Origin: Kordia sp.
GTDB lineage: Bacteria > Bacteroidota > Bacteroidia > Flavobacteriales > Flavobacteriaceae
NCBI GenBank assembly: GCA_002733415.1
Contig: NVVR01000002.1
Span: 1 to 64,000, forward strand
DNA: 64,000 bases
Reading direction: 5' to 3'
Position numbers and translations under genes: made by a program
Part shown: one piece after another, positions 9,636 to 11,385 of the stretch
How positions within the stretch are numbered: position 1 is the stretch's first letter
Layout of the letters: each line of letters opens with the position of its first letter
Notes under the pieces: generated by a model
Databases searched by the model: none
What the model was told of the DNA's origin: nothing
What the model saw: the letters and a program-made list of their open reading frames with translations, nothing else

Positions 9636-10661
9636 TCAGTCAGGCTCATTTGTGTTATAAAGCGCTAAAGCAGTTCGTAACTTATAGTTTACTCTTTTTT
9701 TCAAACGTTCTGGCTGAATCACTTTCATGCTTTCCCCAAACCCTAAAATCAGACGTTCCAATTCGTAATTAATTTTTACCTTGATGTTAATGTCAACACT
9801 TCCATTAAGATACTGATGTTCTATAGTTTGTGAGTGGTGTAAAGGTTTGGTAACAACATAAGGAGCATTACTTTTATCAATCCATATTTTAATATTGCAT
9901 GCACGTTCTCCTTGATTAACAGTTACTCCAATAGCATCTTTATAAAATGTATCAGGATCAAAACCTTGATCTAGATACGCTGTTTTTAAATCATAATCAA
10001 TACTGATAATTCTATCTAAAGCTAAATTAGAAACACCATTTGATCCAGCTCTTTTACCAACTAAGAACCAACGGTTGTTATATTCTTTTAAGATATACGG
10101 ATGAAATGTAATTTCAGAAGAATCTTTAGCTTTAAAAGATTTATAGGTTAATTTAATAACAACTTTTTTAAGAATGGCTTGGTATAACTCATCTAAGTAC
10201 TGTAGGCCTTTTAAATTGTCATTCTTATCTAAATGAATAATAGACTGATGGTCTTTTTGTGAAGAATAAACAGAATCTTCTAATCGTTGAAGTACACCGT
10301 CCATTTCTTTAAATAAGGAGAAGTCTTTAAATTGTCTCAATACCGCAATGGCTTCACTCATTACTTTTATATCATTATCAGTTACTGGAATATTCATAAT
10401 ACTATAGGCTGTATCAGTATAGCGATAATATTTTTTGTCGTACACTTCAATGGGTGCGTTATAGCCTAATTTGTCACTACGCATCAACTGTATGTCTAAT
10501 TGTACAGTACGCTTACTAACATTAATGTCTTTTCCTTCATATTCATAAAGGGCATCTGAACAGGCTTCAATTAAATCATTCAAAGTCCATTGCTTATAGT
10601 TGTTGCGTAAACAGTTATCAATGGTTTTGTATCGTATCAGAGCATTCTTATTAGCAGCCAT
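9636..10661 (-). CDS. WYL-domain transcriptional regulator (wHTH-WYL-WCX architecture)
   Basis: N-terminal HTH-like region. Classic WYL motif FHPYILKEYNNRWFLVG. C-terminal WCX-like segment PLHHSQ...LERLILGFGESMKVIQPERL. Confidence 0.75.
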   Translation of the reverse strand: MAANKNALIRYKTIDNCLRNNYKQWTLNDLIEACSDALYEYEGKDINVSKRTVQLDIQLMRSDKLGYNAPIEVYDKKYYRYTDTAYSIMNIPVTDNDIKVMSEAIAVLRQFKDFSLFKEMDGVLQRLEDSVYSSQKDHQSIIHLDKNDNLKGLQYLDELYQAILKKVVIKLTYKSFKAKDSSEITFHPYILKEYNNRWFLVGKRAGSNGVSNLALDRIISIDYDLKTAYLDQGFDPDTFYKDAIGVTVNQGERACNIKIWIDKSNAPYVVTKPLHHSQTIEHQYLNGSVDINIKVKINYELERLILGFGESMKVIQPERLKKRVNYKLRTALALYNTNEPD

Positions 10662-10662
10662 T

Positions 10663-11301
10663 TTATCGTTTATTAATTAGTTCTATTTCAGATTTTAAGT
10701 TAGTTCTTGCTATATCTTCATATTTGTTTTTAAAGATAGCTGTAGTAAAAATTGATTTTTTGTTAAGAAAATGTTCTAATACTTTTTTACGCCCTTTATA
10801 ATAAATGATATTTGGGACTGTTTTGTATTCAGTACGTATCTTTTTAGTGTAGTCAAGATATACTTCCCATGATTGGCCAAGTATTGCTAAATCAAAATCA
10901 ATTAAAAAAGAAGTGTCATTGGAATTTGATGTATGTGTTTTGGTAGCTAATATGTGTGCTGTAATGTTAGCCGTATTTACATTTTGTAATTTCAATTTAT
11001 TTAATACTTTAACTGCAAAATCAGCACTTTTTTCTTCATTATCTTTTTTCCAAACATTGTAGATAATGTCATGATAAAATATAGCTAAGATAAATTCTGT
11101 TAGGTCTTCAATTTCCGAACTGTACATGTCTAGGTAACTAAACAGTTCATTTAAATGCGTTAAATTATGATAGGCTCTAAACGATTCAGAGTAATGTTTG
11201 TGTAAGCCTTCCCATAATTCTTCAATAACAGTTTTGTCTGTTGTATACTTTAGGAACACTTTTTCAAAGCGATTTTTTAACTCCATTTGAATAAATTTCA
11301 T
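10663..11301 (-). CDS. HD-domain metal-dependent phosphohydrolase. It is in an operon with the WYL regulator.
   Basis: The H...HD motif (YHNLTHLNELF ... IFYHDIIY). Its stop is 1 nt from the WYL start. Confidence 0.6.
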   Translation of the reverse strand: MKFIQMELKNRFEKVFLKYTTDKTVIEELWEGLHKHYSESFRAYHNLTHLNELFSYLDMYSSEIEDLTEFILAIFYHDIIYNVWKKDNEEKSADFAVKVLNKLKLQNVNTANITAHILATKTHTSNSNDTSFLIDFDLAILGQSWEVYLDYTKKIRTEYKTVPNIIYYKGRKKVLEHFLNKKSIFTTAIFKNKYEDIARTNLKSEIELINKR

Positions 11302-11322
11302 TAAAAGTAACGAAATAATTTA

Positions 11323-11345
11323 ACTACGCAAAAAGACTGCGCAAT
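11323..11345. promoter_or_regulatory. Palindromic operator-like motif ACTACGCA-N7-TGCG(Y)A, copy a, in the divergent promoter region
   Basis: actacgcaaaaagactgcgcaat. Related copies are at 12784-12806 (perfect) and 22997-23023. Confidence 0.4.
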
Positions 11346-11385
11346 AAGGTCGAATATTTGTACTGTTATTAAAAAAGAAATAAAA

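Follow-up and report, generated by a model that had tools for sequence, protein, structure and literature searches.

A WYL-domain transcription factor of Kordia sp. very probably controls an island of RNA-repair genes, as judged from conserved gene order and from a candidate operator that recurs in the promoters of the island. The factor is encoded in the 64,000-nucleotide (nt) window analysed here (assembly GCA_002733415.1, contig NVVR01000002.1, positions 1 to 64,000), which is AT-rich with a GC content of about 32%. In the model that we favour, a dimer of the factor would bind an asymmetric inverted repeat of 19-23 bp at three sites (O1, O2 and O3), and a nucleic-acid damage signal would bind its WYL domain. 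The bound factor would then activate repair promoters that lack a -33 element, as the activator DriD does at its own promoters, and at O1 would limit its own synthesis. The induced set would comprise RtcB ligases, RlaP nucleotidyltransferases that rebuild 3' ends, a Y-like RNA and an HD phosphodiesterase-like enzyme, which may heal cyclic-phosphate ends of the kind sensed by the factor or remove them as a signal. Taken as a whole, with a DriD-like activator, an RNA-repair regulon, an RNA-damage signal and a role for the HD protein, this model appears moderately probable. The genes at its core are as follows.

9636-10661, minus strand: WYL transcription factor gene (341 amino acids, aa), with winged helix-turn-helix (wHTH), helical linker, WYL and WCX domains
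10663-11286 (open reading frame, ORF, to 11301), minus strand: HD-superfamily, phosphodiesterase-like protein (207 aa), first gene of the HD-WYL operon
11386-12774, plus strand: RtcB paralog (462 aa; Pfam RtcB, E 6.7e-36)
12844-13590, plus strand: RlaP1 (Pfam RlaP, E 6e-70)
13587-14657, plus strand: RlaP2 (Pfam RlaP, E 2.7e-27)
14733-15446, plus strand: DUF434 and DUF5616 protein (DUF5616, E 1.6e-56; DUF434, E 1.5e-15)

All of the features that a first-pass annotation had described in this layout are present. It had placed an HD phosphohydrolase gene together with the WYL gene, and the two lie on the same strand with a single base between the HD stop and the WYL start, so they are probably co-transcribed. 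The proposed divergence from the RtcB paralog operon was also confirmed, across an 84-nt intergenic region (11302-11385) that parts it from the HD-WYL operon. The RtcB paralog keeps the GDGNHF, HHGSRG, HNF and PHGAGR motifs, and its PDxH motif reads PDAC (in MPDACPAG), with Cys in place of His. It belongs to a clade conserved at about 70% identity across genera and is 29% identical over its full length to RtcB2, which is encoded further downstream.

The divergent arrangement is conserved well beyond Kordia. Our orthologue sample consisted of the best 80 of more than 525 relatives (57-69% identity), from a scan of one genome per species. It covered the Flavobacteriaceae (Kordia, Aquimarina, Tenacibaculum, Flavobacterium, Cellulophaga and others), Crocinitomicaceae (Crocinitomix), Saprospiraceae, Flammeovirga and Proteiniphilum. 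Neighbourhoods were analysed by tblastn and all-against-all clustering of ORFs. Divergence was scored in the 71 loci that offer 3 kb or more of sequence ahead of the WYL gene; RNA-repair genes are transcribed away from it in 66 of these, with a ligase among them in 54. The conserved neighbour families all lie upstream of the WYL gene and, except for HD, on the opposite strand.

RtcB: 53 loci, strand opposite to WYL
HD: 23 loci, WYL strand, immediately upstream of WYL
RlaP1: 22 loci, strand opposite to WYL
RlaP2: 18 loci, strand opposite to WYL
RNase-T-type exonuclease: 15 loci, strand opposite to WYL
DUF434: 14 loci, strand opposite to WYL
TPR: 12 loci, strand opposite to WYL
PrfH: 11 loci, strand opposite to WYL
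Band-7: 10 loci, strand opposite to WYL

Several unannotated small proteins also recur beside the WYL gene, and three more neighbour clusters correspond to T4-type polynucleotide kinase-phosphatase (Pnkp), T4 Rnl1-type RNA ligase and Ro60/TROVE. Either Pnkp with Rnl1 or Ro60/TROVE is found under the regulator and its operator in loci L007, L031, L034, L047, L058 and L080 and in L044, L045, L055, L056 and L065, where they replace RtcB or add to it. The repair module is therefore exchangeable under one regulator, and because the regulator stays constant while the adjoining repair chemistry (3'-P or 5'-P ligase) is exchanged, it is better seen as a dedicated regulator than as a chance neighbour.

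The short intergenic regions of these loci all hold ACTACGCAAT-N-ATTTTGCGTAGT, an inverted repeat (TACGCAA/TTGCGTA) around a T-rich, asymmetric 5-nt spacer (T-N-A-T-T). Its consensus core is TACGCAAT-N-ATTTTGCGTA, and the extended 19-23-bp form reads (ACT)TACGCAAT-N-ATTTTGCGTA(GT). A degenerate pattern with at most one substitution matched 160 times in the 81 loci searched, compared with about 3 matches in block-shuffled versions of the same loci. There are 153 unique sites, of which 150 are oriented like the WYL gene and 146 are intergenic. The window contains exactly three sites, all on the minus strand, where the shuffles predict 0.1. One of them, at 11325-11343, is a palindromic motif within 11302-11385. 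The sites in the window and their associated promoter boxes are given below.

11302-11309, minus strand: -7 box TACTTTTA (TAnnTTTn type) of the HD-WYL promoter, 19 nt downstream of the TTTG inside O1
11325-11343, minus strand: candidate operator O1, TGCGCAGTCTTTTTGCGTA, common to the HD-WYL and RtcB-paralog promoters
11353-11360, plus strand: -7-like box AATATTTG of the RtcB-paralog promoter, 9 nt after O1
12786-12804, minus strand: candidate operator O2, TACGCAGTCATTTTGCGTA, between the RtcB paralog and RlaP1
12814-12821, plus strand: -7-like box CATCTTTG of the RlaP1-RlaP2-DUF434 promoter, 9 nt after O2
23001-23019, minus strand: candidate operator O3, TACGCAATCATTTTACGTA, before the YrlA-like RNA and Band-7
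23029-23036, plus strand: -7-like box GAAGTTTG, 9 nt after O3

A site is present no more than 160 nt ahead of the WYL gene or HD-WYL operon in 60 of 79 loci, usually at 27-44 nt from the WYL ATG or 27-42 nt from the HD ATG. O1 is orthologous to the sites at about 35-42 nt from the HD start or 27-44 nt from the WYL start. RtcB is the commonest target on the other side (41 sites), and sites also precede the exonuclease (8), a small protein of cluster c5 (7), Rnl1 (6), Ro60 (5), RlaP1 (4) and some unannotated ORFs. The RlaP1 sites, found in L003, L018, L039 and the window, are 36-40 nt upstream of the gene, and eight other sites are located 610-780 nt before Band-7 genes. The first-pass proposal that the WYL protein controls the RtcB locus thus gains strong in silico support, both from the divergent synteny and from the presence of the putative operator in the promoters of RtcB, RlaP and further repair genes.

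The same observations bear on whether the protein is instead a BrxR-type regulator of a defence island that only incidentally lies beside RNA-repair genes. PADLOC WYL models do match it (E 3e-26), and WYL regulators are common in defence islands (PMC9122601). However, the nine neighbouring proteins gave no match to PADLOC models, and a defence role sits poorly with RNA-repair synteny in nearly all loci and with an operator embedded in repair-gene promoters. We regard this explanation as very improbable. A separate scan of viral contigs for the operator gave 120 loci, none with a WYL gene. An RtcB-like gene lies beside the site in one of them only (L174, an IMG/VR contig), with the site at 3371, in the usual orientation, about 150 nt upstream of the gene (2016-3218, minus strand). 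L174 is viral or proviral, and the other 119 matches have no related genes beside them. Since the WYL gene is absent from all of these loci and an RtcB-like gene is present in one, the viral matches are mostly chance.

Promoter geometry, determined for 144 sites anchored on the operator, differs between the two sides of the site. The arrangement TTTG-N19-TAaTTTT (TTTG-N19-TAnnTTT) is restricted to the WYL-facing side of WYL-proximal operators (60 loci) and is the canonical Bacteroidota -33/-7 arrangement. The operator covers this -33 element of the regulator's own promoter, and binding should therefore limit the regulator's own transcription. The repair-gene strand carries a conserved nAnnTTTG box with its TTTG at +13 (81 sites) or +14 (25 sites) from the core, which sets the start of the -7-like box at 9-10 nt from the core in 106 of 144 sites. 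At the repair-side -33 position, about 19 nt upstream of this box, the expected TTTG is occupied by CAAAAT of the operator, and the repair promoters therefore appear to lack a -33 element and to have the operator in its place. The TTG within the operator was considered as a repair-side -33 and rejected, because the usual Bacteroidota spacing is 17-23 nt and only 13-14 nt separate this TTG from the -7 box.

The architecture of the WYL protein, which is 100% identical to a protein encoded by a Kordia sp. metagenome-assembled genome, points to a class of known activators. Its translation contains EITFHPYILKEYNNRWFLVG and also FHPYILKEYNNRWFLVG, and the WYL motif and WCX-like C-terminus recognised at first reading correspond to Pfam matches for WYL (PF13280, E 2.7e-12, residues 155-221) and WCX (PF25583, E 2.9e-12, residues 255-331). 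A domain scan returned WYL and WCX alone, with neither a CARF nor a sigma-54 AAA+ domain seen, and the Pfam scan gave no HTH match. A wHTH is nevertheless evident in the AlphaFold2 model at residues 1-81 (helices 2-19, 27-42 and 50-61; beta wing 71-81), in a region covered by full-length Foldseek alignments to DriD, BrxR and CapW. The model has a pLDDT (predicted local distance difference test) of 74. It places the WYL barrel, made of beta strands, at 168-224 and the WCX domain at 255-336, and builds the linker from helices 95-113, 120-136 and 153-164 without a beta hairpin, at a pLDDT of only 33-58. Foldseek against the PDB ranked DriD first (E 8e-15), followed by PafBC (1e-12) and by BrxR and CapW (about 1e-7). 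A profile of 20 orthologues searched against PDB sequences at E of 0.001 or lower matched only DriD and PafC (about 1e-4), with the profile aligning to the WCX domain of DriD. The 341-aa protein is thus most likely a DriD-type one-component transcription factor, which would act as a dimer.

DriD of Caulobacter crescentus is a homodimeric activator, with a three-helix bundle between wHTH and WYL-WCX, of an SOS-independent DNA-damage regulon (PMC13004042, PMC10853764, PMC9186387). Its sites stand at a fixed distance from the -10 element, over a missing -35, and are bound asymmetrically (PMC13004042). Because the promoters described here share this placement of the site and the fold evidence points the same way, a DriD-like activator is favoured over a CapW-like repressor, and by this analogy the factor is probably an activator. 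The single orientation of 150 of the 153 sites relative to the regulated gene, like the asymmetric spacer, would fit asymmetric engagement, though only indirectly. The same regulator and operator could also work as a repressor of the CapW/BrxR type, in which a ligand-free dimer would block the divergent and internal promoters until ligand binding released it and the island was derepressed. A divergent, autoregulated gene with a single palindrome serving two promoters is found in CapW-CBASS (PMC11662680) and fits this mechanism equally well. In addition, the operator covers the regulator's own canonical -33 and the -33 region of every target promoter, and Foldseek also recovers BrxR and CapW. 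Repression is, however, unlikely. The nearest proteins by both fold and profile, DriD and PafBC, are activators, and a three-helix bundle between wHTH and WYL marks DriD-type activators, while BrxR and CapW have a helix-beta-hairpin (PMC10853764); the linker is modelled here as three helices, in a region of low confidence. The RWHVR motif of CapW and BrxR reads RWFLV in the WYL protein (NNRWF(L/V)(V/I)G across the family, without the second Arg), and PADLOC found no defence genes nearby. Simple occlusion would also not require the strict spacing (within 1 nt) or the fixed orientation of an asymmetric site.

If the operator is functional, the regulon is wider than the RtcB locus to which the first reading had limited it, as O2 precedes RlaP1 and O3 precedes a YrlA-like RNA and a Band-7 gene. 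Judged by operator positions in other genomes, it also includes Pnkp/Rnl1, Ro60 and the RNase-T-type exonuclease. The two features behind O3 are the following.

23092-23400, plus strand: structured non-coding RNA, YrlA-like (Y RNA-like), with a 5' stem block followed by tandem modules resembling the T arm of tRNA
23730-24830, plus strand: Band-7/SPFH protein (Pfam Band_7, E 6e-26)

The Rfam YrlA family (RF02553) matches the window at 23205-23312 with 33.8 bits (E 7.8e-5), under the gathering threshold of 69 bits, and syntenic matches in L001, L012, L048 and L050 score 33-39 bits, likewise below it. We therefore call this RNA YrlA-like only, although it is structured: RNAalifold on six sequences of the conserved 5' block gave 36 pairs, 10 of them with compensatory changes. 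A conserved non-coding stretch precedes Band-7 in 8 loci, with an O3-like arrangement upstream. In Salmonella, an rsr-yrlBA-rtcBA operon is under the control of RtcR (PMC7790460). The parallel extends to a Y-like RNA and RtcB in the Kordia island; the window has no Ro60 gene, although in other loci one lies behind the candidate operator.

The annotated genes and RNA preceded by operators all belong to RNA repair and none to DNA repair, which favours an RNA-derived signal; we give an even chance that the ligand consists of RNA fragments or ends. In DriD, Tyr240 and Arg288 were modelled to clash with the 2'-OH of RNA (PMC9186387). They correspond here to an invariant Thr247 and to Tyr/Phe299 in an alignment that is weak (E about 1e-4) and numbered from a native length of 327 aa, and the replacement is a weak hint of an RNA ligand. 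The alternative is that the WYL domain senses single-stranded DNA (ssDNA) and that the island is an arm of a DNA-damage or prophage-induction response. Wherever a nucleic-acid ligand has been characterised for a wHTH-WYL-WCX factor, it is ssDNA (PMC9186387, PMC11804915, PMC11662680), and Salmonella rtcBA is induced downstream of DNA damage (PMC7790460, PMC9879122). An SSB gene (111 aa; 9158-9493, plus strand) is convergent with the WYL gene in the window, and SSB or RadC genes are near the regulator in a few other loci. The operators, however, stand before RNA-repair genes, the Y-like RNA and some unannotated ORFs, and no recognisable DNA-repair gene carries one in any of the 81 loci. This WYL family has other residues in place of the two by which DriD is proposed to exclude RNA. 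Only about 5 loci (besides the window, L003, L039, L065 and L084) have SSB close to the regulator, so that this adjacency is probably incidental. Sensing of ssDNA therefore seems unlikely. That the protein would be the first WYL factor to sense RNA damage, through a pocket remodelled relative to DriD that would take up cleaved RNA or tRNA ends, and with a multi-promoter RNA-repair regulon that includes a Y-like RNA, is a tentative proposition, somewhat on the doubtful side.

The HD protein carries an H...HD...D metal-binding motif on an all-helical HD fold, and its predicted fold is closest to class I cyclic-nucleotide phosphodiesterases. Sequence searches of Pfam, NCBIfam and the PDB gave no match, and its identity consequently rests on motif and predicted fold. 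Such a fold fits the proposed role as a 2',3'-cyclic phosphodiesterase or 3'-phosphatase. RlaP enzymes extend 3'-OH ends (PMC12776372), which makes the healing of ends ahead of RlaP a reasonable role for it, by analogy, with degradation of the signal as an alternative. The gene is present in 23 of 80 loci, where it invariably sits between operator and WYL gene, and absent from 57, and is thus an accessory, optional member of the island. Its family occurs with WYL, RlaP and RtcB in Maribacter and also adjoins unrelated genes in Chryseobacterium and Nonlabens. In L038, L040 and L046 a stand-alone HAD protein (cluster c69) is the first operator-controlled gene before the RlaP pair. By eye, its sequence resembles the phosphatase half of polynucleotide kinase-phosphatase, and its position would fit a step that makes 3'-OH ends before nucleotide addition.

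Several points weigh against the favoured model. Bacteroidota promoters do not always require a -33 element, so its absence does not prove dependence on an activator. The linker region is poorly modelled (pLDDT 33-58 at residues 87-149), the HD protein occurs in a minority of loci and its family also in unrelated contexts, and within the island itself the RtcB2-PrfH genes and the tRNA array described below have no operator. The CapW and BrxR repressors have exactly this gene layout too, with a palindrome inside the bidirectional promoter of a divergent gene that regulates itself (PMC11662680). On the side of the ligand, the wHTH-WYL-WCX factors with a characterised nucleic-acid ligand all bind ssDNA (PMC9186387, PMC11662680, PMC11804915); DriD binds single-stranded RNA weakly (PMC9186387) and CapW does not bind poly-U RNA (PMC11662680).

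Further features of the island lie between the DUF434 gene and Band-7.

16599-18008, plus strand: RtcB2 (Pfam)
18031-20443, plus strand: PrfH-like release factor, TPR protein, unknown 181-aa protein and RNase-T-type exonuclease (Pfam)
21773-22980, plus strand: array of eight tRNA genes (Cys, Tyr, Asp, one low-scoring, Leu-TAG, Arg-ACG, Gln and His)

An ORF-poor spacer of 1.1 kb (15447-16598) separates the DUF434 gene from RtcB2. It contains terminator-like GC hairpins with T runs near 15860-15895 and 16443-16478, and neither an operator nor an Rfam match at gathering thresholds was found in it. The RtcB2-PrfH module (16599-20443) is of the known PrfH-RtcB ribosome-rescue type and elsewhere sits directly behind an operator-controlled RtcB paralog. 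A relaxed search (up to 3 mismatches) detected no operator upstream of RtcB2-PrfH or of the tRNA array, and because the genes at 16599-20443 have no operator of their own, their membership in the regulon is uncertain; neither they nor the array are claimed for it. Several tRNAs of the array are classic targets of anticodon nucleases. A similar array lies beside the YrlA-like RNA in L050, and Anabaena co-regulates a tRNA array with rtcB when translation is stressed (PMC8421152). No homologue of Ro60, Pnkp or Rnl1 was found within the window. In Maribacter algarum (L084), the next gene downstream of WYL encodes a tyrosine integrase (6593-7837), with RadC and SSB genes after it, which suggests that the island can sit beside or within an integrative element. 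A Flavo-1 RNA (Rfam RF01705, 52.4 bits, above the gathering score) at 54354-54475 on the plus strand is far from the island.

Outside Proteobacteria, the detection of RNA damage and the induction of repair are hardly understood, and RtcR is the only regulator that has been studied. This locus supplies a defined regulator, a defined candidate operator of 19-23 bp and a precise promoter geometry, with a predicted regulon of RtcB, RlaP, Pnkp/Rnl1, Ro60, the YrlA-like RNA, Band-7 and exonuclease. The regulon spans many marine and freshwater Bacteroidota, including the fish pathogens Flavobacterium columnare and Tenacibaculum, and offers a testable model for their response to RNA damage. It also raises the questions of whether a WYL domain can read RNA rather than ssDNA, whether DriD-style activation operates at Bacteroidota sigma-A promoters, and which parts in repair fall to the RlaP pairs, DUF434 and the HD phosphodiesterase-like protein.

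Control of RNA repair by WYL factors is, as a general prediction, already in the literature. Factors with WYL or CARF domains were suggested to sense RNAs with cyclic-phosphate ends, and some of them to regulate RNA-repair pathways (PMC9503650, Iyer, Burroughs, Aravind 2022), and WYL/CARF control of RNA repair was also predicted by Makarova et al. 2014 (PMC4012209). In the passage concerned, PMC9503650 credits the prediction to Burroughs and Aravind 2016. Our literature search, which did not cover the extent of that 2016 work, found no operator, regulon, promoter geometry or subclass assignment, and no experimental paper on a WYL regulator of rtcB in Bacteroidota. What appears to be new here is a DriD-like WYL factor with an RNA-repair regulon, together with its predicted operator and regulon.

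Among known systems, DriD is the best structural and profile match. The two proteins are similar in length (327 and 341 aa) and both have a helical linker, modelled here at low confidence; both also have a palindromic site at a fixed distance from the -10 or -7 box and over a missing -35 or -33, and asymmetry of the site may be a further parallel. A site lies close to the start of DriD itself, which may repress its own gene (PMC9186387), and autorepression is probable in both. They differ in that identity is only about 16-18%, the operator has another sequence, the promoters here are of the Bacteroidota type (-33/-7), Tyr240 and Arg288 are replaced, and a DNA-damage regulon contrasts with RNA repair and a Y-like RNA. 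PafBC, the heterodimeric activator of Actinobacteria that acts by sigma adaptation, shares the WYL-WCX fold and target promoters in which the factor's site takes the place of the -35. It differs in being a heterodimer or fusion with a non-palindromic site, compared with the single gene and palindromic site found here, and PafBC cannot bind DNA without RNA polymerase (PMC10853764). The repressors CapW (CBASS) and BrxR (BREX) have in common with this protein a divergent autoregulated gene, a palindromic operator, a bidirectional promoter and the WYL-WCX core. They are, however, shorter (about 270-295 aa), have a helix-beta-hairpin linker and the RWHVR motif, and control defence systems; an ssDNA ligand releases them from DNA (PMC11662680).

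The system closest in function is RtcR of Enterobacteria, likewise a one-component regulator, encoded divergently from the RNA-repair operon with RtcB that it controls. In Salmonella this operon includes Ro (rsr) and the YrlA/YrlB RNAs, and RtcR is activated by damaged tRNA fragments (PMC7790460). The analogy with RtcR drawn in the first-pass annotation holds at the level of function and fails at that of domains, as the WYL protein has no CARF or sigma-54 AAA+ domain. The two regulators are not homologous, with an Sm/SH3-like WYL domain here and a Rossmann-like CARF domain in RtcR, and with sigma-A rather than sigma-54 promoters. If the model is true, an RNA-damage-sensing WYL factor would be the convergent counterpart of CARF-RtcR.

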